Assembly: GCA_964612665.1 (NCBI GenBank)
Contig: CAZTCI010000002.1
Coordinates: 83,659 to 147,658 of the forward strand
Origin: an uncultured Planctomycetales bacterium
GTDB taxonomy: Bacteria > Omnitrophota > Gorgyraeia > Zapsychrales > JAHFFX01
Direction: 5' to 3'
DNA length: 64,000 bases
Each line of letters opens with the position of its first letter. Positions within the stretch are counted from its first letter, which is position 1. A program made the position numbers and the translations under genes. Under the pieces are notes generated by a model. That model was not told the DNA's origin. It saw only the letters and a program-made list of their open reading frames with translations, and ran no database searches. Positions 1,877-27,748 of the stretch are shown here, one piece after another.

Positions 1877-2467
1877 GTGGTTAAAAAGAAACTCAACAAT
1901 ACGGATGTGGTAAAAATTGCTGAACAAAAGCGGCATTTATTTCTTTTGGAGAAAGTCCAACAAGGAAAACCGCTTAGTGAACGTGAGATTGTCGAGATTA
2001 GACATTTTGAGGCCGTGCATGAGCCGCATGAGGGATGTGTGAATAGCATTGAGAATCTTGCCAAAATTTTTAAAGTGGATCGACGTACCGCATATCGATG
2101 GAATGAAGAAGGCATGCCGTGGCAAAAAGACGGCTGGTGGAATATTGTAGAGGTTCAAAAATGGCGTGAAAGTCGCAATAAGAAAAAAGAGCAAGAACCA
2201 GAGGGTCAATTTGAAGCCAAGATTGCGGAGGTAAGGTATAACCTTTTAAAATTAAATTATGAAGAACGTATCGGGGATGTGATCTCACTGGCAAAAGTAA
2301 AAGAGGATATCGGCAGCGAAATTCTTATCATTAAGCAGCAATTTCTTTCTCTACCGCGTCAAATTGCTCCGCAGTTGTTCGGATTAGAAATCATCGAAAT
2401 AGAAGAACTTTTAGAAAAGAAACTCAAAGAAATTATATCAGGATTTGCCAAAGGGAAATATCGGTGA
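1877..2467 (+). CDS. terminase small subunit (putative, HTH DNA-binding)
   Basis: 196 aa, HTH-like segment (RRTAYRWNEEGMP), charged coiled-coil C-terminus, immediately upstream of and overlapping TerL start. Confidence 0.5.
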   Translation: MVKKKLNNTDVVKIAEQKRHLFLLEKVQQGKPLSEREIVEIRHFEAVHEPHEGCVNSIENLAKIFKVDRRTAYRWNEEGMPWQKDGWWNIVEVQKWRESRNKKKEQEPEGQFEAKIAEVRYNLLKLNYEERIGDVISLAKVKEDIGSEILIIKQQFLSLPRQIAPQLFGLEIIEIEELLEKKLKEIISGFAKGKYR

Positions 2468-4326
2468 GGCAAGTTGAAGAAAGCTTTTTTTGTGAATTAT
2501 TTAACCTATGGGATTTGCCGGCTGATCTTACCGTTTCACAATGGGCGGATCAGAATAGGGTTTTGGACCCGCGCTCGTCATCCGAACCCGGGCAGTGGTC
2601 GACCGCGCGTACGCCGTATCTTAAGGGCATCATGGATGGTTTTAATGATGCAAAGGTCAGGTCAATTACGATCATGGCGTCCACCCAGGTCGGCAAGACC
2701 GAAGCAATGCTTAATATTTTTGGTTACATTGTTGATCAGGATCCCGGTCCTGCGCTGTGGGTCAATACAACCGAGGAGTTAGCAAAAAGTTTTTGTAAAC
2801 ACCGGATTCATCCTCTGGTCACAATGTCACGGACCTTAGTTCAACATTTGACTGGCAAAGAGGATGATCTAGCGAAACTCGAAATCAGTTTTGACCGAAT
2901 GCCTTTGTTTATTGCCTGGTCGAATTCGCCGGCGGTACTTTCATCAAGACCGATTAAATATATATTCTTTGATGAGGTTGATAAGTATCCAAAATTCTCC
3001 GGTAAGGAAGCAGACCCTATAAAGCTGGGAGAAGAACGTACAAGCACATTTTGGAATCACAAAATAATCAAATGTTCAACGCCAACGACCAAAGAAGGAT
3101 ACATCTACAATGATTATCTTAAGACAGACAGATGCCAGTATTACGTTCCATGTCCGCATTGCGGGCACTACCAGGTTTTAAATTTTCATCAGGTGAAGTG
3201 GCCGAAAGACGAATTTACAACCCAGGAGTTAAAGGATAGGCGGCTGGCAACATATGAGTGTCTTAAATGCAAAGGAAAAATTAAGGACATTCATAAAAAC
3301 AGGATGTTACAGCGGGGCGTGTGGTGTCCAGAATCTTGCGAAGTCAAAGATGGCAAGATTGTTGGAGAGGTACCGGTAACAACGCGCCGCGGCTTCTGGA
3401 TCAATGCGCTTTATTCGCCATGGTTGACATTTTCTGATTTGGCAGCGGAGTTTTTGGAGTCAAAGGATCAAATTAATGATTTGATGAATTTTATCAATTC
3501 AAAGCTGGCCGAAATTTGGGAGGAGAGTTTAGGGACTAAGAAGCCGGATCAGCTTAAAAGATTGGCCAGTCATTGTGATGCCGGTGTTGTTCCTTCTGAA
3601 GCGCAGATTTTACTTGGAGCGGTAGACGTTCAGCGGGATCACTTTTATTTAACGATCAGGGCCTGGGGTTTTCGTCAAAAATCCTGGCAGATTTTATCAA
3701 AGCGGGTAGAAAGTTGGGAAGATGTTGAACATTATATGATCGACACAGAATATCCAAGCGAGATTGAAAGTATCGGGAATTTTAGTGTCAGACTTTTTAC
3801 GATTGATACGGGACACCGCGCAAGTGAGGTTTATGATTTTTGCCGTAGACATGGTGATATAGCCCGCGCTATTAAAGGGCGACGGGTCATTAGCGGGATT
3901 CCGTATAGTGTGAGCAATATTGATAAATATCCGGATGGCAGACCAATGCCAGGGGGTCTTAAGCTATATCTTCTGGATACGACATTTTTTAAAGATAAGA
4001 TTACGCGTTTGGTTGAGAATACGGCAGCCGAAACGCCTGGTGGATGGTATTTCCATAAAAACCCTACGGAAGACTATCTCAATCAGTTTTGCTCTGAACA
4101 CAAAATCATCATCAGAGATAAAAAAGGCCGGCCAACTGAGGCTTGGGTGCCGGTTGGGAGGCATACAGCAACTCATTATTGGGATTGTGAAGTATATGCC
4201 ATGGCGGCAGCTGAAATGCTGCACGTTTTTTCTATGCAGCCGGATGAAAGCCGTCATGTTTATCAGCCGGAAAGCGGCAAAAGCAACTGGATCCCTAAAA
4301 AGACTGGCTGGATAAAGCATGGGTAA
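2464..4326 (+). CDS. terminase large subunit, GpA family (lambda-like)
   Basis: 620 aa; Walker-A-like MASTQVGKTE near N-terminus, C-terminal nuclease region; position between TerS and head genes. Confidence 0.85.
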   Translation: MRQVEESFFCELFNLWDLPADLTVSQWADQNRVLDPRSSSEPGQWSTARTPYLKGIMDGFNDAKVRSITIMASTQVGKTEAMLNIFGYIVDQDPGPALWVNTTEELAKSFCKHRIHPLVTMSRTLVQHLTGKEDDLAKLEISFDRMPLFIAWSNSPAVLSSRPIKYIFFDEVDKYPKFSGKEADPIKLGEERTSTFWNHKIIKCSTPTTKEGYIYNDYLKTDRCQYYVPCPHCGHYQVLNFHQVKWPKDEFTTQELKDRRLATYECLKCKGKIKDIHKNRMLQRGVWCPESCEVKDGKIVGEVPVTTRRGFWINALYSPWLTFSDLAAEFLESKDQINDLMNFINSKLAEIWEESLGTKKPDQLKRLASHCDAGVVPSEAQILLGAVDVQRDHFYLTIRAWGFRQKSWQILSKRVESWEDVEHYMIDTEYPSEIESIGNFSVRLFTIDTGHRASEVYDFCRRHGDIARAIKGRRVISGIPYSVSNIDKYPDGRPMPGGLKLYLLDTTFFKDKITRLVENTAAETPGGWYFHKNPTEDYLNQFCSEHKIIIRDKKGRPTEAWVPVGRHTATHYWDCEVYAMAAAEMLHVFSMQPDESRHVYQPESGKSNWIPKKTGWIKHG

Positions 4327-4552
4327 TTGGATCCCAAAAAAGAAGGGTTGGATCGGAACTCCGGTATCTTCACCGGAAATAGAAGCCCAGCCACAGCCTC
4401 AAGAATATGGTGTTGTTTTTTATCCTGTGCGGTGTCCGAAAAGTAGTTGTAGAAGCAAAAATAACCGGTGTTACAAAAGCACACCACCGATTCGATACCA
4501 TATTTGCAATGATTGTGGGTACAGGTTTAAAAGCAGAGAGGCAGAGGATTAA
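4319..4552 (+). CDS. small zinc-ribbon protein (CPxxC...CxxC)
   Basis: 77 aa with two Cys pairs (CPKSSC, CNDC); 8-nt overlap with TerL stop; N-terminus NWIPKKKGWI duplicates TerL C-terminus NWIPKKTGWI. Confidence 0.45.
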   Translation: MGNWIPKKKGWIGTPVSSPEIEAQPQPQEYGVVFYPVRCPKSSCRSKNNRCYKSTPPIRYHICNDCGYRFKSREAED

Positions 4553-4670
4553 AACAAGTCGTTACCAATTTGTGGTAACGACCCCATTGACGGCAGAGAA
4601 TAAGTTCATAGAATAAAAATTGTTTAAAGATTTACGTTGATAGAAGGGTGGCCACCCCGATATCGACGAA

Positions 4671-4720
4671 AAAAGCGGCAATTTGGGTGCCCAAATCACT
4701 CGAATTGCCGCTTTTTTATT
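4671..4720. terminator. rho-independent terminator-like hairpin (A-tract, 9-bp stem, T-tract)
   Basis: aaaaaGCGGCAATT...AATTGCCGCttttttatt; inner palindrome atttgggtgcccaaat in the loop. Confidence 0.55.
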
Positions 4721-4733
4721 TAATGGAGGAGAA

Positions 4734-5213
4734 ATGAAAAACAAAATTATAGGTTTAATGATTTTTATTTTTATTTCGATGACTTGCCGCGCTATGGCTG
4801 ATTGTGTCGGAACTATTCAATCGATTACACAAGATCCGGATCAAGGAGACATAGTATTTACGACTGAATATGCCTTCAACGGAAAAGTCGTAGATGCATC
4901 GGAAATTCACTATGACGAAACAAGTGGTAACGAAACGGACATAGCAGAAAAAGCTCATGCAGATATAAGAAATCATTGCAATGTCTTGATTCTTCAAATT
5001 CCAGAAAATCAGGCATTCATTGAACAGGCTAAACTCGACCGTAAGAAAGAATTGACAAACCCTTTGGTGTCAAAACTTCAGGTTCTGGTTGGTGATCAAT
5101 ATACCGTGACTCAAGGAACAGTTGTTTTTCAGGGCAAGTCAATCAATGTTAAAGACGATAAGGAAAACTCGGTATCGGATGCCGTCATTGTCGAGGACAT
5201 TAATTCGCCATGA
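4734..5213 (+). CDS. secreted hypothetical protein (Sec signal peptide)
   Basis: Start at MKNKIIGLMIFIFISMTCRAMA with AXA cleavage site; RBS ggagga upstream; stop overlaps next gene start (ATGA). Confidence 0.5.
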   Translation: MKNKIIGLMIFIFISMTCRAMADCVGTIQSITQDPDQGDIVFTTEYAFNGKVVDASEIHYDETSGNETDIAEKAHADIRNHCNVLILQIPENQAFIEQAKLDRKKELTNPLVSKLQVLVGDQYTVTQGTVVFQGKSINVKDDKENSVSDAVIVEDINSP

Positions 5214-6004
5214 AGAAATTTATTTTAGGATTGATGTTTTCTTTTTTCTGTTCGTTAGGGTGGGCGACTAACTATTGCACAGATTCAAACACAAAAGCTG
5301 CCTATAAGCTTGATGAGACTAGTGGGACCGTTACGGACTGCAGCTCTAACGCCAATAATAGCTCCTCTGTCACTAACGTCACACAGAATACAACGGGAAA
5401 ATGGGGAGTAGGAGTTTCATTTACAAATTCAAATCCGCAAAAGATTTTAATTCCTTCAAGTACATCACTCAACAACATAAATCCGATTACCGTTTGTGCT
5501 TGGATAAAAAGAAGCGGCGCTGGTGGGGCAACAGGAAACCTGGCGGATGACGGCACCCTTCTTAGTAAAAACTGGAGAAGCTGGGCTTTATCTTTAAACA
5601 CGACTTTGCAGGTTAGATGGTCGGTTCATTATTCTGGCGGAACTGCAGCCTGGACAACCACAAATGGGAGCATTGTGACCGGAACGTATACGCACGTCTG
5701 CGTTGTCCACAATAGGACCAATGGCTCGGCACCTAGTATTTATGTCAATGGAACGTTACAAAGCACAAATTCAAACTCAACAGATGCAACCATTGATGAT
5801 GATTCTGGTCAAGCGATATGCATGGGAGAGGCTTGCGATTTAAACAGTGACCGGTTAAATGCTTTTGTGGATGAAGTATTAATTTATGGCGGGGCTTTAA
5901 ATTCTACACAAGTAACCAATATAAAAAATTGCGGAATTGATGGTTCTCATTGTGCCAATGGTTTCCCAACTCCAGATTTGTGGAGGCATCCAAGATATGA
6001 ATAA
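5210..6004 (+). CDS. secreted LamG/concanavalin-A-like lectin domain protein
   Basis: Signal peptide MKKFILGLMFSFFCSLGWA; C-terminal motif FVDEVLIYGGALNSTQV typical of Laminin_G_3 domains. Confidence 0.55.
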   Translation: MKKFILGLMFSFFCSLGWATNYCTDSNTKAAYKLDETSGTVTDCSSNANNSSSVTNVTQNTTGKWGVGVSFTNSNPQKILIPSSTSLNNINPITVCAWIKRSGAGGATGNLADDGTLLSKNWRSWALSLNTTLQVRWSVHYSGGTAAWTTTNGSIVTGTYTHVCVVHNRTNGSAPSIYVNGTLQSTNSNSTDATIDDDSGQAICMGEACDLNSDRLNAFVDEVLIYGGALNSTQVTNIKNCGIDGSHCANGFPTPDLWRHPRYE

Positions 6005-8888
6005 AAAATTTCTGTCATTAATTATTTCTTTGGTGATTCTTTTGCTCCCAGCGCAATCTTGGGCGATGTGGTTGACGATCAAGAAGGGGACGACATCAAA
6101 GATTATCACGATTCCCATATATGACAGTTCTTCAACGACTGGCGGCATGTTAACCGGCTTAGTTTACAATTCGAGTAGTTTGACAGCTTATTACAATCGC
6201 GAAGGAGCTTCTGGTGCCGCAACTTCAATAAGTCTAGTTAATGCCACAAAGGGGACATGGACTTCTGGAGGATTTATCGCGGTTGATGGTACCAATATGC
6301 CAGGCTGGTATGAGTTGCACATACCTGATGCGGCTCTTGCGACAGGTGCAAATTCAGCCGTTGTTGAATTAAAGGGCGCTGCAAACATGGTTCCTGTAAA
6401 TATTATGATCCAACTGGTTGATTTTAATCCTGGTGAAGTCTCAACAGGGACTGGATCTAATCAGTTGGATGTTACCAGTGGACGTATTAAGGCAGATGTT
6501 GCATATTGGAACGCTTCTGCCGTAGCCACACCCGATACCGCCGGATATCCCAAGGTCACCCTTAAAGCTGGTAGTGGAACGGGTGAATTAAATCTATCCA
6601 GTGGGAACGTCACTGTAGGTACCAATAATGATAAATCCGGCTATTCATTATCGGGCACTTTAACCACTTTAGATTCCACCTTTGAGAGAGTTAACACAGC
6701 ACAAGCGGGAGCAGCTGGTTCAATTACTTTAGACGCCGGCGCTTCAGCAACCGATAGTCTTTATAACGGTAATTGGGTATGCATCATGAGCAGCACCGGT
6801 GCTGGGCAATGCCGTTTGATCACTGGTTACACAGGATCGACTAAGGTTGCAACGGTCACACCAAACTGGACGACCAATCCATCTTCAAGTTCAGTTTTTG
6901 CCATTGTTCCAGCAGCTTATGAAGCTGGAAATAATGGGAATGTGGCAGGATCAGTTAATAGCGTTACCTCTGGAGTGACTGTTTCGATCAATAACGATAA
7001 GACCGGCTACAGTCTTACTCAATCTTTCCCCACGAATTTTTCCAGTTTAGGTATCGATGGCAGCGGCAGAGTTGATTTGGGCAAATGGATAGGAAATGCA
7101 CCGAATGCGCTTATTTCCGGCCGTGTCGATTCAAATGCCCAGGTAGTTGGAGATAAAACTGGATACAGTTTGACGCAATCGTTTCCTACCAATTTTTCAT
7201 CCCTTTCAATTGATTCAAGCGGAAGAACCACACTGACACCAATAGAGTCATCCGTCTTGGCTAGTGGGACGGCGCAAGCTGGTGCTTCGGGAAGCATAAC
7301 TTTAGCTGCCGGAGCATCTGCTACGGATGATCTTTATAAGGGTTTGGTCGTAAAAATTTATGGAGGCACAGGAGCAGGCCAATCCAGAACGATTTCGGGA
7401 TATATCGGTTCGACCAAGGTCGCAACAGTATCTTGGAATTGGACAGCCACACCAGATAACACTTCGACATACTCGCTTATGTCTGAATCCAATCCATCAA
7501 TCAATAGCAGCTTACAGGTTTCAACAACGGCGAGTGATCCGTGGGGAACAGCTTTGCCAGGGGCATATGGAGCCGGAACAGCGGGGAATATTTTAGGAAA
7601 CAATTTGAATGCTACCGTTTCATCGAGATTAGCCACAAGCGGCGTGCCTACAAACTTCAGTGCATTATCAATTGATGGATCCGGCCGCGTGGATTTAGCT
7701 AAGTGGATTGGTTCTGCCCCGAATGCGTTGATTTCAGGACGGGTTGATTCTAACGCTCAGGTGGTAGGTGATAAAACGGGATATACCGCAGCAACGGTTC
7801 AGGATAAGACTGGCTATTCATTATCTGGAACACTCACCACTTTAGATTCCACCTTTGAGAGGGTTAACACGGCCCAGGCCGGTGCAGTCGGTTCGATTAC
7901 TTTAGACGCGGAGGCTTCAACGACCGATAACCTTTATAACGGAAACTGGGTCTGCATTATGAGCAGCACTGGTGCCGGGCAATGCCGTTTGATCACCGGC
8001 TATACAGGATCGACTAAGGTTGCAACGGTCACGCCAAACTGGACAACCAACCCATCTTCAAGTTCAGTTTTTGCCATTGTTCCAGCAGCTTATATTTCTG
8101 CAGTCAATGGATCCGTCACGGTGGGAACGAACAATGACAAGACCGGCTACAGTTTAACCCAAGCATTTCCGACCAATTTTAGTTCCATGGTAATTGACAG
8201 TAATGGTCGCATCGATTTGAGCAAGTGGCTTGGAAGTGCACCTAACGCGCTTATCTCTGGCCGCGTGGATGCCAATGCACAAGTGGTTGGAGACAAAACA
8301 GGATATACCGCATCAACCGTCAGCGATAAAACCGGTTATAGCTTGACGCAGGCGTTTCCAACTAATTTCAGTTCATTATCAATAGATGCGTCAGGTCGTA
8401 CTGATATCGGTAAATGGTTGGGAACAGCAGTTACAGCAACGACAACAGCCGGAAAACCGGACGTTGTTATTGTGACCAATAATGACAAGACAGGATACAC
8501 CGTTTCAACTGTTGGAGATAAGTCTGGGTATTCTTTAAGTTCTGCCGGTGTCGCTGCTATCTGGAATGAATTGCAAAGCGGCCACACCACATCTGGGACT
8601 TTCGGTAAATATCTTGATGCGCAGATTTCAACGATTACGGCACCTTCCGCGGCGACTATTGCACAATCGGTTTGGGATGAACCTATTTCTGGTCATTTAG
8701 CTTCCGGCTCAACTGGTCAGAAACTTAATACCGCAGGTAATGCTGGGGATCCCTGGGCTATTGATATTTCCAGCGGATACAGCGGTAAAGCTGGAGAAAC
8801 TATCCGCCGTATTGATCAAGATACGAATGGAAACAAAGATGGCAGCGATTATAACGGCATTGAAAAACTAATCAGGGCGCAGAGGTAA
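5998..8888 (+). CDS. large secreted Thr/Ser/Gly/Asn-rich beta-repeat protein (fibre/adhesin-like)
   Basis: Start MNKKFLSLIISLVILLLPAQSWA (signal peptide) overlapping upstream stop; repeated modules NNDKTGYSLTQ(S/A)FPTNFSS..ID.SGR..L.KW.G.APNALISGRVD.NAQVVGDKTGY; C-terminal VW(N/D)E..SGH..G(S/T).G motifs reminiscent of phage fibre proteins. Confidence 0.6.
6639..6920 (+). repeat. 282-bp direct repeat copy 1 inside the large repeat-protein gene
   Basis: Near-identical to 7812..8093 at DNA level (differences scattered, mostly synonymous); encodes GYSLSGTLTTLDSTFERVNTAQAGA..GSITLDA.AS.TD.LYNGNWVCIMSSTGAGQCRLITGYTGSTKVATVTPNWTTNPSSSSVFAIVPAAY. Confidence 0.8.
7812..8093 (+). repeat. 282-bp direct repeat copy 2 inside the large repeat-protein gene
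   Basis: See copy 1; the same 94-aa segment is duplicated 1173 bp downstream. Confidence 0.8.
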
Positions 8889-8890
8889 GT

Positions 8891-9436
8891 ATGGATTACA
8901 TTCCAGTTAATACCGAATTCGTTGATGTCGTAGCCATCCCTGAGTCCACAAGTAGCGATACTGTCAGTTTTAAGGTCTATAAAGCTAGTGACGGATCCAT
9001 ATTTGCTCAGGGCAATGCCGTATTTGTGGGAGGAGTAAATTGGAAAGTAACCTTTACTCCTACGACTTTGAATGAAGTTTACAGCATTGATGTCAAAGAT
9101 GAAACTTTGGATGTCATTCATTCCAATAGTTTCAAGGCAGTAACGCTCACATCATTATCGCAGCCGGTTAATGATGACAACACTGATGAACCTACAGCTG
9201 CAGACTTACTGACCGAAGTCAATAAGGCGATTAAGAAAAGAATTGCCGGTGATGCCGTGCAGTCATATTCAATCGGCGGACGTAATCTTCAATATATGTC
9301 CATTGATCAGCTTTACAACATTCGAGAGAAATTGCGCATGGAAGTCAATGCTTCAAAAGGGCCTGCCCGTAATGTAGGCGGATTTAGAAAAAATCAAACC
9401 GGAGTTAGAAACTGGCAGGATTTATATGAGTGTTAA
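8891..9436 (+). CDS. head-tail joining protein with gpW-like C-terminal domain and an N-terminal beta-rich extension
   Basis: C-terminal ~70 aa (AADLLTEVNKAIKKRIAGDAVQSYSIGGRNLQYMSIDQLYNIREKLRMEV) resembles lambda gpW; located between TerL region and portal as W is in lambda. Confidence 0.4.
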   Translation: MDYIPVNTEFVDVVAIPESTSSDTVSFKVYKASDGSIFAQGNAVFVGGVNWKVTFTPTTLNEVYSIDVKDETLDVIHSNSFKAVTLTSLSQPVNDDNTDEPTAADLLTEVNKAIKKRIAGDAVQSYSIGGRNLQYMSIDQLYNIREKLRMEVNASKGPARNVGGFRKNQTGVRNWQDLYEC

Positions 9437-20220: not shown

Positions 20221-20639
20221 TGGACCTTTTGACACAGGAAAAAACAATTGTCCGTAAATATTTGGACGTTAAATACAAACTTCGCGGACGAGCAGTGGAT
20301 AGCGGACTTGATTGCTATGGATTGATCGTAGCCATTTACAAAGACATGGGTTTTGAGCTTTTGGACATTGAAGAGGAGTACAACGAGGACTGGGCATGGG
20401 AAGGCCGGAACCATTTTATTGAGAATTATCACAATCAGTGGATCAAGGTAGAGTGGCCGAGATTTCTAGATGTGGTTTTGTTTAAGAATTCAAAAGGTAT
20501 TGCCAATCATGGCGGAATCGTGCTTCGGGATGACAGATTTCTACATTGCAGCAAAACCAATGTGACGGTCGGCCGGCTGGCTCAAGAGCCATGGGATAAA
20601 CGAATTGATGGGTTTTATCACTTAAAGGCACGCGGATGA
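20220..20639 (+). CDS. tail protein K-like NlpC/P60 peptidase
   Basis: DCYGLI (Cys nucleophile) and HGGIV (His) NlpC/P60 motifs. Confidence 0.6.
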   Translation: MDLLTQEKTIVRKYLDVKYKLRGRAVDSGLDCYGLIVAIYKDMGFELLDIEEEYNEDWAWEGRNHFIENYHNQWIKVEWPRFLDVVLFKNSKGIANHGGIVLRDDRFLHCSKTNVTVGRLAQEPWDKRIDGFYHLKARG

Positions 20640-23600
20640 TCAAAGTCACGCACATACCAAATATTCTTAATAATGAGAATCGCCGCGAGGTGGGGTTTGT
20701 TTATGACCGCGACAAAACTGTCCTTCAATATCTACAGGAATCCGGATTTGAACATGAAGGAATGCGGATTATTGTATCGGGCAAGAAAATTTCTGATTTA
20801 AGCGCGCGGTTAGATAAAGGTGATCAAATTCTTATTTTGCCTGATGTCAAAGGGCCTCTGATTCCTTTGATAGCAGCGGCATTTCAATTGTTAGTTGCCG
20901 CAATTGTAGCCCATCCATTCATTGCTGCCTTCGCATTTCTTTCAATCGGTTACAGTATTTATTCTTACGCCAGCACCAGCCGCAAGCCAGCATTTAATCT
21001 TAGCGGAGGTTCGGGCATTGACAGCGCATCGCCTACGTATTCTTGGGACGGGATTCAAACGACACAGTCAGTCGGTACACCAATTCCGATCATATTTGGA
21101 ACTCACAGAGCTGGCGGCAATATCATCAATCAGTTTATTAATACCGATGGTAATGACAATTATTTAAATATTCTATTGGCTCTTTGTGAAGGAGAAATTG
21201 AAGGCATTTCTAATATTGAAATCAACGGAAACCCTATTGAGAATTTTCAGAATATTACAACAGACCTTCGTTATGGTACGAACAATGAAACCATTGTTAG
21301 CAATTTTCATGATTTGCACAATATTTATGCGGTCAATGCGCAGCTGCAGCAAAGCAGTTCATATGTTTACACCACAATTAACAATGATGTGCAGGCCTTT
21401 GAGATTCATTTATCGCTGTCAAACGGACTTTATTATCAAAATTCCAGTGATGGGTCTATTAATCCGTGGGAGGTTGATTACCGTATCGAATACAAACTCA
21501 CAAGTAGCGGCACATGGATTGATCTAGGTGTTCAAGCCATTAATGATCAAAGTCGAACCAGTGTACAACGTATCTTTCGTAAAGATGGGCTGACAGCCGG
21601 TAAATATGATATTCGGGTTACGCGTACATCAGCTAATAGCGATTTTTATCACACCGGTGACTTATTCTTTCTAAGTGTTGATGAAATAAAAACAGAAGAT
21701 ATTGCCTATAACAATACTGCAAAAATAGGGATTAAGGCACTTGCCACCAATCAATTATCTGGAAGCACGCCTAATGTTACTTGCCTGGTTAAAGGTTTAA
21801 AAATTTTGGTTCCCAAAGTCATGCAGGGAGCCGTCGAGATTGCTTGGGATAACTATTATTGGGATCCGAATGCACAAATTTATAAGCTGCTTTCTGATAA
21901 TTCATCTCTCACATGGGATGGTACCACGTATGTTCGCCGGTATTCTGCCAATCCAGCTTGGTGCTTATATGAGTTGTTGACCAATTCGCGTTTCGGACTT
22001 GGGGAGGTTATCGCAACATCACAGATGAAAATATCTGATTTTGTTGAAATGTCTAAATATTGTGAGGAGAAAGTCAGTAATGGTAGCGGAGGTTATGAGA
22101 AACGATTCAGGATGGATGTTGTCATTGATAGTGCCAGTTCATCATTGGACATTATTTCACAGTTGGCTGCAGTCTTTAATGCGCTGCCATTTTACTCCCA
22201 AGGTTTGATTAAATTAAAAATCGATAAGCCGGATAGCCCAGTGCAGTTGTTTGGTATGGGCAACATCGTTGAGAATACCTTCCAACAGTCATGCAAATCT
22301 TACAAAGACATTTATAACGTTATTGAAGTTCAGTATCTGAATCAGGACATGGATTACGCGCAAGATACGATTTCCTTTATTGATGGAGTGGCTTTAGCCG
22401 CGGGGGATCCTGTCAGAAAGAAATCTATTCGGATTTTTACGACCAAAACGTCATATGCAGTACGGGCCGGCCGGTATGCGCTTTTGGTTGCCAAGTACAT
22501 CAATCGTTCCATTGCTTTTAATGCCGGTATTGATGCGATTGCTCTACAAGCTGGAGATTTGTTTGATTTTTCTCATGATGTGCCGGCATGGGGTTTGTCT
22601 GGAAGAATAATCTCGGGTACTACGACATCAGTTACGCTTGATCAATCGGTCACGCTTCAATCAAGTTTAAGTTATGTGGTGAGGGTCAAGTTTTCAGATG
22701 ACACTATTCAAGAAAGAACAGTGTCCAATGCTGTAGGCACATACACTGTTTTAAATGTGTCTTCTGCTTTTAGCCAGGCACCGCAGGCATTTGATGTTTA
22801 TGCCTTTGGCCAGACCAATAAGGTCGTTAAAACATTTCGAGCAGTCACGCTGCAGCGGATGAACAATTTTGAGGTAGCTCTGCATGGGATTGAATATAAC
22901 GAAGGTGTTTACGATGATTCTGCGGTGGTCCTTCCAGTCAATATCGTGTCTTCTTTGGATCCAACAATTCCTGAAGTCACTAATTTAGTGTTGAGTGAAA
23001 ATGCGGTTAATTTGAATGATGGCACGATTCAAGATGTTATTGATGTTTATTGGCAGGCTCCGGTTATTACCAATTCATTGCGCAGATATGCAAAGGCCAG
23101 GGTGTATATCTCTGCCGATAATGCTGCTAGTTGGCTTTTAGCCGGAGAGACGAGCGGCACCAGTTTCTCAATTCAAAGCGGGATCGCCGTAGGTAATCAA
23201 TACAAAATAGCAGTTGTATCAGTCACTGATCACAACGAAGAAAATGGCATTTTAATAAGCCCGCAGGCCACTATCACCACAATCGGCAAGAATTCACCTC
23301 CCAGCGATGTGACGAATTTCGCAGTAGATCAAAATAACAGTTTTCTTGATTTCTCATGGGATCCCATTCAAGACAGGGACCTAGCGCGCTACATCATTAA
23401 AAAGGGTAGCACCTGGGAGACCGGACAGGTCGTGGCTGAAAAAATAGATGTAACAAAGTTTACAGGTGAGGTGGGGGAAATCGGTCAGGTAACGTTCATG
23501 ATTAAGGCTGTGGATACCTCTGGTAATGAAAGCAATAATCCTGGCATTTATGACATCACCGTAGCACCACCACCAGATTTAAATTTCGTCGTGAATTTTG

Positions 23601-24301
23601 ACCCATGGGCAGCCAATCGTGAATACAAGTTAACTAATATTGCCCGGGAAGAAATGAATATTTTTAATCCAGTCTATGCGCGGGATGTCTTTTCATTAAT
23701 GACTTCACAAACTTGGGCAGATGAGCAAGCAACAGGAAAAGGTTGGGACGAAGCGGTTGCTGCTGGTGATTTGAATTTTAATAAGACTTTTCAGACATCC
23801 GGATCAATTGAACAGGTGGACCCGTGGGATCTGGGATTCTTGTTTGAATTTCATATCATCTTGGACATGTTATTTAACAACGTGGCCGGCGGCACATTGA
23901 CGATTCAAATTGCCATCAGTGAGGACAATGTCACTTGGGGCAACTTTGCCAATGTGGATGGATCAATTAATTATCGTGCCCGGTATATGAAGTTTAAATA
24001 TTTGCTTACATCCGATGGAACAAACAATCTTTATTTTTATGCTGGAACGATTTTTGTCAATGCGCCAAATGTGAGGGTGGCATGGTGGAGGGATGTCGCA
24101 GTTCCAATTGGCGGGGTGACCATTAATTTTGGAACGCCTTTTAACACGACACCTCGTATTACAGCATTAATTGTAAAGAATGCCGTGGGTGTGCCAGAGG
24201 TAGTATCGATTGATTTATCTACGATCACAGTCAAGGTTAAGGATTTAACAAATTCATATATTGGCACCTCAAAGGTTGATGGAGAGGTGAGGGGAAATTA
24301 A
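20636..24301 (+). CDS. tail tip/host-specificity protein (gpI-like N-terminus fused to gpJ-like central fibre)
   Basis: 1221 aa, position after K; N-terminal ~200 aa with hydrophobic segment as in gpI; FN3-like repeats downstream. Confidence 0.7.
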   Translation: MIKVTHIPNILNNENRREVGFVYDRDKTVLQYLQESGFEHEGMRIIVSGKKISDLSARLDKGDQILILPDVKGPLIPLIAAAFQLLVAAIVAHPFIAAFAFLSIGYSIYSYASTSRKPAFNLSGGSGIDSASPTYSWDGIQTTQSVGTPIPIIFGTHRAGGNIINQFINTDGNDNYLNILLALCEGEIEGISNIEINGNPIENFQNITTDLRYGTNNETIVSNFHDLHNIYAVNAQLQQSSSYVYTTINNDVQAFEIHLSLSNGLYYQNSSDGSINPWEVDYRIEYKLTSSGTWIDLGVQAINDQSRTSVQRIFRKDGLTAGKYDIRVTRTSANSDFYHTGDLFFLSVDEIKTEDIAYNNTAKIGIKALATNQLSGSTPNVTCLVKGLKILVPKVMQGAVEIAWDNYYWDPNAQIYKLLSDNSSLTWDGTTYVRRYSANPAWCLYELLTNSRFGLGEVIATSQMKISDFVEMSKYCEEKVSNGSGGYEKRFRMDVVIDSASSSLDIISQLAAVFNALPFYSQGLIKLKIDKPDSPVQLFGMGNIVENTFQQSCKSYKDIYNVIEVQYLNQDMDYAQDTISFIDGVALAAGDPVRKKSIRIFTTKTSYAVRAGRYALLVAKYINRSIAFNAGIDAIALQAGDLFDFSHDVPAWGLSGRIISGTTTSVTLDQSVTLQSSLSYVVRVKFSDDTIQERTVSNAVGTYTVLNVSSAFSQAPQAFDVYAFGQTNKVVKTFRAVTLQRMNNFEVALHGIEYNEGVYDDSAVVLPVNIVSSLDPTIPEVTNLVLSENAVNLNDGTIQDVIDVYWQAPVITNSLRRYAKARVYISADNAASWLLAGETSGTSFSIQSGIAVGNQYKIAVVSVTDHNEENGILISPQATITTIGKNSPPSDVTNFAVDQNNSFLDFSWDPIQDRDLARYIIKKGSTWETGQVVAEKIDVTKFTGEVGEIGQVTFMIKAVDTSGNESNNPGIYDITVAPPPDLNFVVNFDPWAANREYKLTNIAREEMNIFNPVYARDVFSLMTSQTWADEQATGKGWDEAVAAGDLNFNKTFQTSGSIEQVDPWDLGFLFEFHIILDMLFNNVAGGTLTIQIAISEDNVTWGNFANVDGSINYRARYMKFKYLLTSDGTNNLYFYAGTIFVNAPNVRVAWWRDVAVPIGGVTINFGTPFNTTPRITALIVKNAVGVPEVVSIDLSTITVKVKDLTNSYIGTSKVDGEVRGN

Positions 24302-24696
24302 TGGCACTCAAAGGATATTGTCCCAACTGCAAAATATTGGTCGATATGGTGGGGATTCAAACAATAAGGCTTGCCAATAAACAGTATGTGCAGAGCGGTG
24401 CTTGTGCAATCGATGGAAGCTCGGTTGTAAAAGCAATCGCTGATACAGAAATGTTAATTGTTCCGCCTGGGTATTATTTCCCAAAGACGGTGTATGCCGG
24501 TAAAGATACGCCGAGCAAAATAATCAATGATCACAACGGTCAGCAAATAATAACGGCCAAGGGTGTTGTGATATCAACCACAGCTAAGGATAAAAACATA
24601 AAAACGTTAGCTCAAATCGAGGAGGGGTTAAATGAAGATCAAAAGAATATTCGCGTTGATGTTAAGCGCGATGCTGTTGTTGCAGACATGGGTTAA
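24301..24696 (+). CDS. hypothetical phage protein
   Basis: 131 aa, ATGA overlap with the J stop. Confidence 0.3.
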   Translation: MALKGYCPNCKILVDMVGIQTIRLANKQYVQSGACAIDGSSVVKAIADTEMLIVPPGYYFPKTVYAGKDTPSKIINDHNGQQIITAKGVVISTTAKDKNIKTLAQIEEGLNEDQKNIRVDVKRDAVVADMG

Positions 24697-26290
24697 GGCC
24701 GATGAGACGATGTATCGGTACGACGAAAACTTTCCAACGGGTAGTTTCTCTTTAGCAAACTTTCGGGCAACTCTGCGAGGCTTGCATGAAATGGATAAGA
24801 TGCCGCTGCGGCCGCGCGCCAAGCGTTACATCGATGATATGGATTACAGTACCGATGCAGCTGCCCAGGCTGTTTATAGCGGTACCGGTGTCACGTTAAC
24901 GCATGAAGCTTCAATTATACAGGAGGGCAGTTATTCATTAAAGGCAGTGACCGATGCGACAGCCAACCGCAGTTTTTCGCGCACGTTCTCGGTCAATTTA
25001 AGTGCTTTTACAAAAATAACTTTATGGGAGAGGTCTTCCGGTACATCGCAAAGCATACGGTTTTATCTACAGGATGGAGCGGCGCATCAAAGTTATTGGA
25101 CGATTACGACCAGCGGTACCGCCAATACATGGAAACAAGACACGATTACTTTAAGCAGTCCATCGGGAAATAACGGAACGCCAGCCGACCTTACGAGTAT
25201 TACATCGTATGGATATTCCAATTTGACGGCATCAAGTACATATTATTTCGACACGATTAAATCAATTGTCGGAATGACTGTAGTAGTTACAGGGACAAAC
25301 CTTGGATCATATTACAATTCAGTTTTTATCGGTGTTAGTCCACTTCTAGTAAATGCTCAAGCTGCACCAACAATCACCGCACCCACATCAAATCCACGCA
25401 TTGATATTTTAAAGATCAATACCAGTGGGACCTTGTCATGGGTAATTGGAACAGAAAACAGCAGTCCGACTATTCCATGGGCAAACATGCCGCAAAATGA
25501 AATACCGATTTGTTTGGTCTACAACAAAGCGACTGAAACAAAAATATTGGATTATGAGGATCAGGCAACCGACACGAACCAAGGATATATTTTGGCCGAT
25601 GTGAGGCCGTTTTTAAACCTTGGCGCAGGTGCATGGGCCCAGGGGGCTAATATCGCATCGGCATCGAGCATCACACTGGGTAATGATGGGATCTTCTTTA
25701 TCATCACCGGAACAACAACCATTACCTCAATAACCGCAAAGCCGGCCGGTGCGGTGGTGTGGCTTAAGTTTGCCGGCATTTTAACGGTTCAAAGTGGGAG
25801 TAATTTATCTCTTAATGGTAATTTTTTAACTTCTGCCGGTGGGACGTTGCAGTTAGTTTCAGATGGAACTGCCTGGTATGAGGTCAGCCGTCAGCCGATT
25901 AAAACCACTTTTGTCGGTCAAACTGACACCCCATCCAGTTATTCCGGCCAGGCCAACAAAATCCTTGCCGTCAATTCTGGAGAAACTGGTGTTCAGTTTA
26001 TTACTACTTTACCGGTTTCAAATGGTGGTACCGGAGCAACGACGCAAAATTTTGTGGATCTATCGAATACCCAAACAGTAGGGGGAGTAAAAACTTTCTC
26101 ATCTGCTATTAAAGCTTCAGTCAATTTAAATAGCGGGTCAGTCACGAATGGAAGTCTAGGGCAGACAACCTGTGGTACGACTGGTACCTGCAATAACTGT
26201 GATGCGTATGTACCATCGGGATGTTATGTGCGCGGACAGCATCGCGACCCCGATGGTTCAGCCGGCTCTTTATATTATTGCTGTCCATAA
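24632..26290 (+). CDS. tail fibre/receptor-binding-like protein with signal-peptide-like N-terminus and Cys-rich C-terminus
   Basis: 552 aa in the side-fibre position; N-terminus MKIKRIFALMLSAMLLLQTWVKA; C-terminal CGTTGTCNNCDAYVPSGC...YYCCP. Confidence 0.4.
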   Translation: MKIKRIFALMLSAMLLLQTWVKADETMYRYDENFPTGSFSLANFRATLRGLHEMDKMPLRPRAKRYIDDMDYSTDAAAQAVYSGTGVTLTHEASIIQEGSYSLKAVTDATANRSFSRTFSVNLSAFTKITLWERSSGTSQSIRFYLQDGAAHQSYWTITTSGTANTWKQDTITLSSPSGNNGTPADLTSITSYGYSNLTASSTYYFDTIKSIVGMTVVVTGTNLGSYYNSVFIGVSPLLVNAQAAPTITAPTSNPRIDILKINTSGTLSWVIGTENSSPTIPWANMPQNEIPICLVYNKATETKILDYEDQATDTNQGYILADVRPFLNLGAGAWAQGANIASASSITLGNDGIFFIITGTTTITSITAKPAGAVVWLKFAGILTVQSGSNLSLNGNFLTSAGGTLQLVSDGTAWYEVSRQPIKTTFVGQTDTPSSYSGQANKILAVNSGETGVQFITTLPVSNGGTGATTQNFVDLSNTQTVGGVKTFSSAIKASVNLNSGSVTNGSLGQTTCGTTGTCNNCDAYVPSGCYVRGQHRDPDGSAGSLYYCCP

Positions 26291-26308
26291 ACAAGGAGAA
26301 AAAAGAAT

Positions 26309-26647
26309 ATGGAAGATTCAAAAAATAAAAATGAAATTCCTTGGGATGGCGTAGACAGACGACAACCCGAAGCATTAAAAGTCTCGACCTGGGTGATTCC
26401 TATTGTCATCAGTCTTTTAATCACATCTGGTAGTTATTTGACTGCCTTTGGTGGATTCAAAGAAAACGTGGTCAATTTAGATAAAAGGATCAATGCTCTT
26501 GAATCAGATAATGAAAAGCACAAAGAAAGAATCGTGATTTTAGATACGATTGTGCCTCTTCTTCAGCACGACATATCGGATATCAAGTCAGATATCAAAG
26601 AGGTCAAAGAAGACATTAAGAGAGTTTTAATAGCGGTCAAACAATAA
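26309..26647 (+). CDS. single-TM coiled-coil membrane protein (holin or spanin-like)
   Basis: TM segment WVIPIVISLLITSGSYLTAF then heptad-rich coiled coil. Confidence 0.3.
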   Translation: MEDSKNKNEIPWDGVDRRQPEALKVSTWVIPIVISLLITSGSYLTAFGGFKENVVNLDKRINALESDNEKHKERIVILDTIVPLLQHDISDIKSDIKEVKEDIKRVLIAVKQ

Positions 26648-26668
26648 ACAACAAACAGGAGGTTATTT

Positions 26669-26971
26669 ATGTGGGGAAAAATTAAACAGTTTTTCAGTAA
26701 TTTATTTAAAAATCCTTTGGTGATCAAATTTGAGAATTTTTTGGAACAAGTTTTTACTGCCGAGAAACCCATCATCATGGCAACGCTTAAGGACATCGCG
26801 ATTAAAGCGGTTCAAAGCGTCAATAGCATTGGTGATCTGACCAATGATCAAAAAAGGGCGCAGGCTTTTGGGCAGATTTCCGATTATGCCAAGGTTCAAG
26901 GTATTCAAGTGGGGGAATCCATGATTAATCTTGCCATTGAAATGGCCGTACAGGCTGTCAAAGGAAACTAA
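26669..26971 (+). CDS. holin-like small protein (possible LL-H type)
   Basis: 100 aa, RBS aggagg, position in the lysis cassette. Confidence 0.25.
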   Translation: MWGKIKQFFSNLFKNPLVIKFENFLEQVFTAEKPIIMATLKDIAIKAVQSVNSIGDLTNDQKRAQAFGQISDYAKVQGIQVGESMINLAIEMAVQAVKGN

Positions 26972-26972
26972 A

Positions 26973-27188
26973 ATGCCAATCTGGTTAACCATTCTTCTTG
27001 GATTAGGTGGAATTCTAAAAGAGGCGCTTCATGTAGCGGGGCTTGTAATACAGGCGCGCCTTGAAAAAGACCAGGAATTAAGAAAAACAAAGGGGGAAAT
27101 GCTCGATGCGGCCAAAAAAGCTATTGATACCGGTGATGTTGATAATATCATTAACCTTGCTGATAAGCTGCGCCAGCCAGGCAGTTAA
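26973..27188 (+). CDS. i-spanin-like protein (N-terminal TM + periplasmic helix)
   Basis: MPIWLTILLGLGGILKEAL TM then charged helical region; an overlapping out-of-frame lipoprotein gene follows. Confidence 0.35.
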   Translation: MPIWLTILLGLGGILKEALHVAGLVIQARLEKDQELRKTKGEMLDAAKKAIDTGDVDNIINLADKLRQPGS

Positions 27189-27327
27189 GCCGGCGCCAGT
27201 TGTAGAAATTAATATGACCCAGGACAAGGGTGTTTGGAAAGATAAAGACGGCAATTACGTTTTTACGCCGGATGCCTTATGGAGGATTTTTCAGATTAAG
27301 ATTAATGCGAAGTATACGACGAAATGA
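27106..27327 (+). CDS. o-spanin-like lipoprotein overlapping the i-spanin gene
   Basis: Lipobox LLISC after a signal peptide; overlaps 26973..27188 in another frame (Rz/Rz1-like architecture). Confidence 0.4.
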   Translation: MRPKKLLIPVMLIISLTLLISCASQAVKPAPVVEINMTQDKGVWKDKDGNYVFTPDALWRIFQIKINAKYTTK

Positions 27328-27363
27328 AAGAGTATATTAATTTAATTGTTTAGTCTACCCGAT

Positions 27364-27392
27364 TTGACAAAAGTCCTTTATTTTGTTACATT
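27364..27392 (+). promoter_or_regulatory. sigma70-like promoter (TTGACA-17-TACATT) flanked by GTTAC...GTAAC inverted repeat
   Basis: ttgacaaaagtcctttattttgttacatt; possible metalloregulator operator overlapping the -10. Confidence 0.4.
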
Positions 27393-27399
27393 CACACAC

Positions 27400-27699
27400 A
27401 TGATTCATTTTCGTAACAAACTTTTTCTGGCCCTAACTTTTCTTGCCTTCTCCATTTTTCTATCAGTTTCGCTGGGTGGAGAATTTCTACACCAGCACAT
27501 TCATCATCATCAAACTAAAGCTTCTCACGATGACTGCCCAGTATACCAATTGCTGGCGCAGGCATTTCTTTTTGTAATTGCTGTAGTATTTTGCTTACAA
27601 AAAGTTTGTATTTGTAGTACTGTCCCATCCGAAGAAATTTTTATTTCCCGTCAGAAATATCTCCTTCCAAGTCTTCGAGCACCGCCGGTTTCTCTCTAA
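27400..27699 (+). CDS. small two-TM His-rich membrane protein (HQHIHHHQ...HDDC)
   Basis: ATG only 8 nt after the -10 element and no RBS, so coding status is uncertain. Confidence 0.2.
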   Translation: MIHFRNKLFLALTFLAFSIFLSVSLGGEFLHQHIHHHQTKASHDDCPVYQLLAQAFLFVIAVVFCLQKVCICSTVPSEEIFISRQKYLLPSLRAPPVSL

Positions 27700-27748
27700 A
27701 CATAATTTTGGTTAGTAGCGTTTTATTTACCAATTTTAGGGGGGAACT

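Follow-up and report, generated by a model that had tools for sequence, protein, structure and literature searches.

A repeated beta-barrel cassette in a modular fibre-like gene of a lambda-like prophage

The stretch of DNA analysed here, 64,000 nucleotides in length and called the window below, carries a large gene (Table 1) in which an earlier note, made from the letters alone, had marked two nearly identical segments of 282 bp. The locus raises the question of how one block came to stand twice in the same gene, and of what kind of protein carries it.

The repeated block and its substitution pattern

The two segments (6639-6920 and 7812-8093) were compared at both the DNA and protein levels. 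Identical bases were found at 249 of 282 nucleotide positions (88.3%), and 90 of the 94 encoded amino acids were the same (96%; 95.7% for B1 versus B2), bearing out the claim that both intervals encode one block. A repeat search delimited the similarity to 300 nt (6630-6929 versus 7803-8102; 86% identity, spacing 1173). The copies start 1173 bp, or 391 codons, apart and are in frame, with 891 bp lying between them. In a self dot-plot of 5997-8888, where the note had expected an off-diagonal line of more than 250 bp, the top 250-nt off-diagonal window reached 88.8% at an offset of 1173; the runner-up reached 60%, and the per-offset maxima had a median of 30%. The two copies were also the sole blastn matches of the block across the whole window, the second at E 6e-102. 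However, the term "tandem-type" used in the note proved wrong for this gene: because Tandem Repeats Finder gave no array in it and 891 bp separates the copies, a tandem arrangement was dropped in favour of a dispersed one.

The copies differ at 33 nucleotides, distributed 2, 3, and 28 over the first, second, and third codon positions, and 24 of the differing codons are synonymous and 4 non-synonymous, as the note had anticipated when it called the differences mostly synonymous. The NG86 estimates were dN 0.027 and dS 0.54, giving a dN/dS of approximately 0.05 between the two cassettes. Synonymous divergence was uneven along the pair, at 0.90 in the first 64 codons and 0.13 in the last 30, a difference of marginal significance (permutation P ~0.05). 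Transitions accounted for 22 of the 33 mismatches and ran in both directions, and adenine bias was absent.

Given that two near-identical repeats of roughly 100-300 bp lie in a phage receptor-binding-type gene, the pair could be taken for the template and variable repeats of a diversity-generating retroelement (DGR), or for the outcome of other programmed hypervariation. A DGR target was nevertheless rejected on the mismatch spectrum, which has neither adenine bias nor a single direction of transitions and consists of synonymous third-position changes, the opposite of DGR mutagenesis. Furthermore, no reverse transcriptase was found among the larger ORFs scanned against Pfam, and programmed hypervariation is barely credible here.

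Whether the second copy is a mis-joined or wrongly expanded repeat was weighed against short-read data. Three sequencing runs yielded Logan contigs that match the window at 100% identity and end within the 42-nt run common to both copies, which is the assembly trouble that the note had foreseen. One contig (L052) reproduces copy 1 over 6639-6908, and three others (L049-L051) begin at 8052/8064, within the 3' end of copy 2. Because the short-read assemblies break in the shared 42-mer and never cross the repeat, the joining of the two copies depends on the window's own assembly. An artefact, however, would be expected to yield identical copies or frame breaks, whereas the 33 differences, 28 of them at third positions, leave the frame open. 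In addition, copy 1 with its upstream flank (3190-6908) and the downstream flank from 8052/8064 were each independently reproduced at 100%, and homologues display the same kind of architecture. An assembly artefact is thus very unlikely. As three independent assemblies stop in the shared 42-mer, fibre genes of such kind are likely under-recovered in metagenomes.

Table 1. Features of the fibre-like gene and its neighbours, in window coordinates
Feature	Position	Strand	Evidence or remark
Conserved intergenic element	4587..4716	+	promoter-like site 4587-4614; strong terminator-like hairpin 4670-4716
159-aa protein, first cassette gene, signal peptide, no known family	4734..5213	+	homologue in L003
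LamG (Laminin_G_3) lectin-like protein, signal peptide	5210..6004	+	Pfam E 1.3e-21
Modular fibre/adhesin-like protein gene, 963 aa	5997..8888, stop included	+	ORF; GGAGG 10 nt before ATG
Sec-type signal peptide MNKKFLSLIISLVILLLPAQSWA, predicted cleavage after SWA	5997..6065	+	read from sequence
N-terminal Ig-like beta-sandwich, aa 24-141	6066..6419	+	AlphaFold2 pLDDT ~97 over model residues 1-120
Repeat copy 1, aa 215-308	6639..6920	+	GYSLSG linker and beta-barrel B1, core 6687-6905
42-nt identical run	6879..6920, twin 8052-8093	+	likely recombination substrate; short-read contig break point
F repeat 1, PTNFSSLGIDGSGRVDLGKW...ISGRVDSNAQVVG	7020..7172	+	phmmer self-map, repeat search families D2-D4, regex
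Further F repeats	7176-7238 (half), 7641-7790, 8160-8312, 8349-8504	+	phmmer self-map, repeat search, regex
Third, diverged beta-barrel copy B', aa 422-494	7260..7478	+	phmmer/HMM iE 6e-26 to B1; repeat search family D5
Single S module, NPSINSSLQVSTTASDPW...NLNATVSSRLA	7491..7634	+	phmmer self-map; recurs in homologues
Repeat copy 2, aa 606-699	7812..8093	+	GYSLSG linker and beta-barrel B2, core 7860-8078
Two [IV]W[ND]E..SGH..G.G motifs	8547..8729 (8547-8630, 8667-8729)	+	phmmer self-map, regex
C-terminal segment ending ...GIEKLIRAQR	8712..8885	+	ending GIEK.IR.QR conserved in related phages
gpW-like head-tail joining protein, ~95-aa N-terminal extension	8891..9436	+	PHROG head-tail joining E 7e-11

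A mosaic protein with a widespread beta-barrel domain

ATG 5997 is the most likely start of the gene. Its 963-aa product had no match in Pfam, PHROG, NCBIfam or PDB sequences, and the same searches detected neither a known tail-fibre family nor a trimerisation motif or C-terminal chaperone. Internal comparison showed the protein to be a mosaic in which an Ig-like N-terminal domain is combined with three 73-aa B domains and five PTNFS...ID.SGR repeats of approximately 50 aa (F repeats). Ten DK[ST]GY motifs stand at the module junctions, and the similarity between the two copies starts at one of them. The note had counted shorter modules at least five times; this held for PTNFS..ID..GR, which occurs five times, but the full DK[ST]GYSLTQ[SA]FPTNFS was found just four times. 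Similarly, the two C-terminal motifs that it had given as VW(N/D)E..SGH are present, although their actual forms are IWNE..SGH and VWDE..SGH.

The folds were examined with AlphaFold2 models, which are monomers of single domains. The B core was modelled as a confident beta barrel (pLDDT 95-98) and matched solved phage tail proteins weakly in structure (E ~0.02, TM 0.5-0.57). For the N-terminal domain, the structural matches in the PDB were generic Ig V-set folds, and those in BFVD were uncharacterised Caudovirales proteins, a 'Tail protein', a BppU N-terminal domain, and minor tail proteins. Sequence searches with B found no match among Pfam, PHROG, NCBIfam or PDB sequences, and when the B and N-domain alignments were run as profiles against the PDB, all matches were at chance level. 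A B profile, in contrast to these null results, matched 23,180 cluster representatives (50% identity clusters), with up to 13 copies per protein. Among the carriers are a gpJ-like tail-tip protein with Phage-tail_3 and FNIII-A_GpJ domains (P0137), a Phage_BR0599 protein (P0123), and a TcA toxin subunit with VRP1, ABC_toxin_N, Neuraminidase-like and TcA_TcB_BD domains (P0122). Because the last carries 10 B-profile matches, B appears to be a portable surface module, and its spread over so many clusters, gpJ-like and TcA proteins included, leads us to infer that the barrels serve as plug-in binding modules of a phage fibre or adhesin. As B is a large family for which Pfam, PHROG and NCBIfam have no model, a curated model would annotate many proteins that are currently hypothetical.

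More than 1594 homologues of the fibre were retrieved. Across the top 120, the architecture varies, with 0-7 B domains and 0-22 F repeats per protein, in agreement with the note's suggestion that module number might differ among homologues. Copy counts were used for N, B, and F only, since the iterated profiles for S, W, and C came to overlap one another. One relative (L001) carries an independent tandem duplication of 774 bp (88% nt and 94% aa identity, dS 0.51), in keeping with the recombinational expansion that the note had proposed. Contraction between the two copies is plausible as well, because they have identical runs of 42, 29, 26, and 20 nt in common and are spaced in frame.

B1 and B2 are mutually closest, and the next relative is a B domain of P0005, at 86-89% aa identity and with saturated synonymous divergence (dS >3). 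The site of B2 is orthologous to that of the lone B copy in P0005, whereas P0009 shares the B1 position together with the GNNGNVAGSV linker. One copy could instead have been imported from the fibre gene of a related phage through mosaic exchange at the DKTGY junctions. Mosaicism of the gene is clear: in the type of its N-terminal domain it departs from its closest relatives, and its last 123 aa are still 56-58% identical in L001, L002, L003, and L012 (tblastn). The GIEK.IR.QR ending is likewise kept in relatives with the same gene order, including those with the other N-terminal domain type. Moreover, at 0.54 the dS is higher than a young duplication would lead one to expect. Nevertheless, among the sampled homologues, in which close relatives are thinly represented, none was nearer to either copy than B1 and B2 are to each other, and we consider such an import unlikely.

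The two intervals are therefore probably paralogous copies of one cassette that were duplicated or homogenised by recombination within the modular fibre/adhesin gene of this lambda-like prophage, that is, by ordinary module shuffling in a phage fibre gene. The cassette unit consists of a DK[ST]GYSLSG junction followed by the 73-aa all-beta barrel. A DK[ST]GY junction motif introduces every module of the gene, which is assembled from reusable units (the Ig-like N domain, B barrels, ~50-aa F repeats, and VWDE..SGH motifs). Recombination at the junctions or of whole modules, through unequal crossing-over or gene conversion, would have duplicated or homogenised the B cassette within the lineage; the evidence fits duplication and gene conversion alike. 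Thereafter, the protein would have stayed nearly constant (dN/dS ~0.05), with synonymous sites drifting to a dS of ~0.5. Multiple B copies would make a longer, multivalent receptor-binding fibre, presumably attached to the virion.

Phage late operon and predicted signal peptides

The fibre gene sits between the large terminase (gpA) and the gpW-like/portal genes of a lambda-like prophage, and the genome that carries it was assigned to Omnitrophota. Pfam and PHROG identified the surrounding genes as terminase, portal (gpB), S49 protease, tape-measure, and gpJ-like genes, and the same gene order was found in six related loci (L001-L003, L012, L043, L044). Against known phages, megablast with the first 24 kb of the window gave no match, and tblastn gave three partial matches, all to unannotated proteins. 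The gpW-like gene begins 3 nt past the fibre stop codon, and the NCBIfam phage_HTJ match of its product was below the cut-off. Upstream of the fibre gene lie the genes of a LamG protein and a 159-aa protein. The LamG-plus-fibre pairing recurs in L003, L043, and L009, in the last of which the LamG protein and a leaderless fibre stand at the structural-gene end beside a likely lysozyme gene (EGGY motif only). An Rfam search with the conserved intergenic element gave chance matches only. Because the cassette genes overlap or abut each other and the gpW-like and portal genes, and no terminator was found downstream of the fibre gene, the cassette is considered co-expressed with the virion genes. 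With respect to morons, a promoter-like site and a hairpin lie upstream, the fibre gene is not followed by a terminator, and every related phage examined carries the cassette.

The note's association of the protein with phage fibres was supported in that the gene is part of a tailed-phage structural (late) operon and its modules occur in thousands of phage fibre-like proteins, with demonstrable tail components (P0137 and P0123) among the carriers. Similarity to recognised fibre, tailspike or baseplate families was confined to weak fold matches, which counts against a virion fibre, as do two further observations. The gene is placed among the packaging/head genes of the operon and not behind the tail genes. 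In addition, a fibre would be cytoplasmic and free of export signals, whereas a Sec leader is predicted on the protein and on its two upstream neighbours, which is hard to square with cytoplasmic assembly. The fibre leader has a KK n-region and a 13-residue hydrophobic core, and positions -3 and -1 are occupied by small residues. Among 61 homologues that have this N-terminal domain type, 53 are leaderless and start exactly where cleavage is predicted, with the residue after the leader, and the leader therefore appears to be a lineage-specific addition.

These leaders suggest an alternative in which the fibre, LamG, and 159-aa proteins are Sec-exported during late infection or in the lysogen, and reside in the periplasm or at the cell surface instead of in the virion. 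B would then supply the binding modules of an exported, fibre-derived adhesin. Such proteins might mask receptors against the loss of progeny on debris, exclude superinfection, act on envelope glycans, or serve as an adhesin for the Omnitrophota host. In L001, L003, L043, and L044, as in the window, every cassette protein is predicted to bear a signal peptide, and the absence of the leader from most homologues points to a gain within the lineage. Furthermore, the named leader-bearing homologues come from Omnitrophota MAGs and the host here is also Omnitrophota-like, the cassette has its own conserved promoter-like site, and B domains occur in the secreted toxin component TcA. On the other hand, the cassette's co-expression with virion genes and the typical structural positions of leaderless homologues argue against export, no LPXTG, autotransporter domain or canonical lipobox was seen in the fibre, and export itself is predicted from sequence. 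We regard export as possible but rather doubtful.

Equally tentative is the broader proposal that, in a clade of Omnitrophota lambda-like (pro)phages, the fibre, its LamG partner, and a third small protein gained Sec leaders and became a conserved exported cassette, one that opens the late operon and is preceded by a conserved promoter-plus-terminator element. If export were true, fibres might join virions outside the cytoplasm, or a fibre-derived adhesin might work at the host envelope or on behalf of the host, and the repeated B barrels would be the binding units of the exported cassette. We know of no precedent in tailed phages for deploying fibre-type proteins by export. A search of the published literature on the DKTGY motif, tail-fibre signal peptides, and intragenic fibre duplications found nothing relevant. 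The signal-peptide version of the fibre in Omnitrophota prophages is a concrete, testable oddity regarding where fibre-type proteins are deployed.

A disulfide, which would fit export, might link the two cysteines in B1/B2; by the predicted strand register, these residues probably face opposite sides.

Likeness to known modular surface proteins

Adhesin repeats such as those of Rib/alpha-C, SasG, and Bap are usually tandem and kept near-identical in DNA by concerted evolution. The window protein resembles them in having a signal peptide followed by reiterated beta domains with recombination-variable copy number, but its copies are dispersed and synonymously diverged (dS 0.54), and no cell-wall or outer-membrane anchor was found in it. 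In Tc toxins, the TcA-type protein P0122 carries B-domain matches, whereas the window protein has no TcA shell or channel domains. A further comparison is with the carbohydrate-binding modules that decorate lactococcal siphophage tail proteins, and with the baseplate protein BppU. Here too, different tail proteins receive small beta domains in varying number, and the fold of the fibre N-domain weakly matches that of a BppU N-terminal domain protein (E 1.7e-3), although no common sequence family links them.

For the lambda gpJ and Stf proteins, the likeness lies in the lambda-like prophage itself (gpA, gpW, gpB, S49 protease, gpJ-like) and in the B domains of the gpJ-like P0137. Unlike in lambda, the fibre gene is not downstream of J, and the prophage's own gpJ-like protein (20636-24301) has none of the fibre's modules. 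Work by Tetart, Krisch and colleagues in 1996 and 1998 reportedly established that conserved short motifs act as recombination points in the gp37/gp38 adhesins of T-even phages, and that host range shifts when a small adhesin domain is duplicated. The window protein has no sequence or family relation to the T-even long tail fibre adhesins and differs from them in its DK[ST]GY junction, terminase-portal location, and signal peptide. It is alike in having reshuffled modules, short conserved junction motifs, intragenic domain duplication, and variable module number, and its repeat is a clean example of phage fibre genes gaining or losing whole modules.

Sequence of the repeat pair and independent assemblies

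The fibre ORF (5937-8888, 983 codons) had its best start at ATG 5997, with GGAGG 10 nt upstream, giving a 963-aa protein. A repeat search of the window recovered 6630-6929 and 7803-8102 (300 nt, 86% identity, 1173 bp between starts). Within this pair, the B1 cassette (6639-6920, copy 1) and the B2 cassette (7812-8093, copy 2) were identical at 249 of 282 nt (88.3%) and 90 of 94 amino acids, confirming the near-identical 282-bp duplication proposed in an earlier note. Its statement that the differences are mostly synonymous was also correct, as 28 of the 33 fell on third codon positions and the differing codons comprised 24 synonymous versus 4 non-synonymous ones (Nei-Gojobori dN 0.027, dS 0.54, ratio 0.05). 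The predicted off-diagonal line of >250 bp at ~85-90% identity appeared in a self dot-plot, where the best 250-nt window reached 88.8%, the next-best offset 60%, and the median of per-offset maxima 30%. This pattern of differences led us to reject two other readings of the pair, namely that the second copy is an assembly artefact, which is very improbable, and that the pair represents a DGR, for which the probability is close to nil.

Tandem Repeats Finder detected no array, indicating that the pair is a dispersed intragenic repeat and not, as the label "tandem-type" had implied, a tandem one; with that exception, the first interpretation is essentially right and the finding itself is real. 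The spacing equals 391 codons, and therefore recombination between the copies would keep the reading frame. The copies shared identical runs of 42, 29, 26, and 20 nt, and dS was uneven, being 0.90 in the first 64 codons and 0.13 in the last 30 (maximal chi-square permutation P ~0.05), which hints that the low-dS 3′ end may be a more recent conversion tract.

Logan contigs from SRR12313477, SRR12313478, and SRR12313479, 100% identical to the window, were then compared. Contig L052 spanned 3190-6908, thereby including the first 30 nt of the 42-nt run (6879-6920). L050 began at 8052, and L049 and L051 at 8064, so that these two took in just the final 30 nt of the twin run (8052-8093). Such breaks would be expected of a de Bruijn graph at the shared 42-mer, with k-mers of about 31 nt as estimated from the 30-nt overhangs. 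Because the contigs end in this run, the fibre gene was split between contigs in the assemblies of all three runs, so the anticipated fragility in short-read data was indeed seen. These contigs confirmed the copy-1 sequence and both outer flanks, with copy 2 covered over its final 30-42 nt; linkage across 6921-8051 rests on the window's own assembly.

Modular architecture, variation, and spread of the B domain

Module order was determined by a phmmer self-map and iterated profiles (see table). A DK[ST]GY motif (10 occurrences) preceded every fibre module, and the B1/B2 similarity starts at one such motif. The short modules noted earlier were present too: PTNFS..ID..GR occurred five times and the fuller form DK[ST]GYSLTQ[SA]FPTNFS four times; the two C-terminal motifs were present as [IV]W[ND]E..SGH. 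No fibre modules were found elsewhere in the 64-kb window.

Features of the fibre protein and of the surrounding prophage
Feature	Position	Remark
Signal peptide	residues 1-23	
N-terminal domain	residues 24-141	
Linker	residues 151-214	
B1 cassette	residues 215-308	
F repeat	residues 342-392	
Half F repeat	residues 394-414	
Diverged B′	residues 422-494	
S module	residues 499-546	
F repeat	residues 549-598	
B2 cassette	residues 606-699	
Two F repeats	residues 722-772, 785-836	
Two W motifs	residues 851-911	
C-terminal segment	residues 906-963	
ParB-methylase fusion		first in listed gene order
Candidate small terminase subunit		after ParB-methylase fusion; no family match
gpA-type large terminase	2464-4326	after candidate small terminase
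Small zinc-ribbon (CxxC...CxxC) ORF	about 4330-4560	directly 3′ of large terminase gene
159-aa protein gene	4734-5213	signal peptide
LamG protein gene	5210-6004	signal peptide
Fibre gene	5997-8888	third consecutive signal-peptide gene
gpW-like head-tail joining protein	8891-9436	N-terminal extension
Lambda-family portal, S49 protease, capsid genes		after gpW-like gene
Tape-measure		after capsid genes; weak match
gpJ-like protein	20636-24301	after weak tape-measure match
Signal-peptide cassette	window 4734-8888; L001 8790-12970; L044 3193-8042; L003 1901-5455; L043 115-3479	

AlphaFold2, run on an alignment of 55 B copies, confidently predicted a small all-beta barrel (core pLDDT 95-98), for which Foldseek returned only weak PDB matches (E ~0.02), including the RcGTA virion, a phage tail tube, a phage baseplate, and an E1-enzyme barrel. 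The N-terminal domain was confidently predicted as an Ig-like sandwich with generic PDB matches; its BFVD matches were uncharacterised Caudovirales proteins, a "Tail protein", a BppU N-terminal domain protein, and actinophage minor tail proteins.

Module number varies among homologues, as the proposed comparison revealed: the top 120 carried 0-7 B and 0-22 F copies in many orders. The N-terminal domain occurred as two non-alignable types, swapped between otherwise related genes. Homologue P0005 was collinear with fibre residues 314-963 (70% identity, whole-module indels) and had a single B cassette at the B2 position; P0009 had its single cassette where B1 sits, and the GNNGNVAGSV linker that comes next is shared with the fibre. 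B1 and B2 were each other's nearest relatives, and dS to the P0005 copy was saturated (>3), so judged from these comparisons their near-identity would have arisen within this lineage, whether through duplication or through gene conversion between positions that were already there. With relatives sampled as they are, an origin of one copy in another phage is unlikely. The homologous gene of the related phage L001 carried a truly tandem, independent duplication of a different, 774-bp unit (855 nt aligned, 88% nt and 94% aa identity, dN 0.035, dS 0.51), indicating that module duplication recurs in the family.

Taken together, the two copies are probably paralogues of one domain cassette, within a phage fibre/adhesin gene of modular build. 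The duplicated cassette would have been generated, and would be maintained, by recombination either at the junction motifs or at the modules; it is under strong purifying selection, and the B barrels may serve as multivalent binding units. Phage fibre genes are already known to carry intragenic module repeats, and this pair is a further instance.

Modest added interest comes from the B barrel being unannotated yet very widespread. The full fibre protein had >1594 homologues, none of which was named and among which no Pfam domain was consistent. The B profile matched 23,180 cluster representatives at E <=1e-3 (11,594 at <=1e-10), a single protein carrying as many as 13 copies. B domains occurred with gpJ-type tail-tip domains (P0137), with a Phage_BR0599 domain (P0123), and, in about 10 copies, in a 3351-aa protein of complete TcA-type Tc toxin subunit architecture (P0122), which connects the receptor-binding regions of toxins with modules of phage fibres. 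This co-occurrence suggests that B is a portable surface or binding module.

The signal-peptide cassette and the site of action

The main uncertainty of the fibre/adhesin reading is where the protein acts. Sec-type leaders were read from the sequence on the fibre, LamG, and 159-aa proteins and on their counterparts in related phages, and of 61 homologues that share this N-terminal domain, 53 were leaderless and began directly behind the predicted cleavage site. Both observations favour an exported protein with a non-virion role, a serious rival that we hold to be possible but distinctly the less likely; against it, the cassette genes lie close up against those for the gpW-like and portal proteins, pointing to late co-expression with virion genes. 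The full order of terminase, zinc ribbon, secreted protein(s), fibre, gpW-like, and portal genes recurred in metagenomic phages (L001/L002, L044) and on L003, a MAG contig labelled Planctomycetales, and two short contigs (L012, L043) retained the matching portion. A second modest point of interest is this leader-bearing cassette, conserved at an unusual position in Omnitrophota-associated phages.

The intergenic region before the cassette (window 4540-4740; L001 8600-8795; L044 3010-3200) was strongly conserved between phages that share only about 50% terminase identity. A TTGACN-16-(T/G)A(T/G)A(A/G)T site resembling a promoter lies in it, together with a long hairpin of terminator-like form in which two pairs covary. 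This layout recalls lambda pR′-tR′; no Rfam family matched the element. The zinc-ribbon ORF, of no known family, was kept in related phages (L001 8369-8617; L044 2797-3027). The N-terminal extension of the gpW-like protein is ~95 aa long, and in L001 (12967-13769) a part resembling it also occurred on its own, as a 99-aa gene that precedes a gpW-like gene of 167 aa.

Prophage and host context

The fibre gene lies in a lambda-like prophage. Beyond it were host genes, among them those for a metal ABC transporter, kdpDABC, and fabF. FabF (56761-58005) was 74-83% identical to its listed homologues, every named one of which was an Omnitrophota/Omnitrophica MAG protein, so the window is probably, by this protein comparison, from an Omnitrophota genome carrying the prophage.

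The prophage seems to end soon after the gpJ-like gene and a 131-aa ORF; in this region (24632-29035), on the gpJ-like side, neither an attachment site nor an integrase was identified. ORFs of 552 and 428 aa, with signal peptides and no family, followed the 131-aa ORF, a low-GC stretch at 26-28 kb was without any ORF >=120 aa, and host genes started at about 29 kb. Farther on, a C5 cytosine methyltransferase gene overlapped a HATPase_c_3 protein gene (39315-42036) inside a region of 37-38% GC (low GC at 40-46 kb), for which a restriction-modification or defence island is a possible reading.
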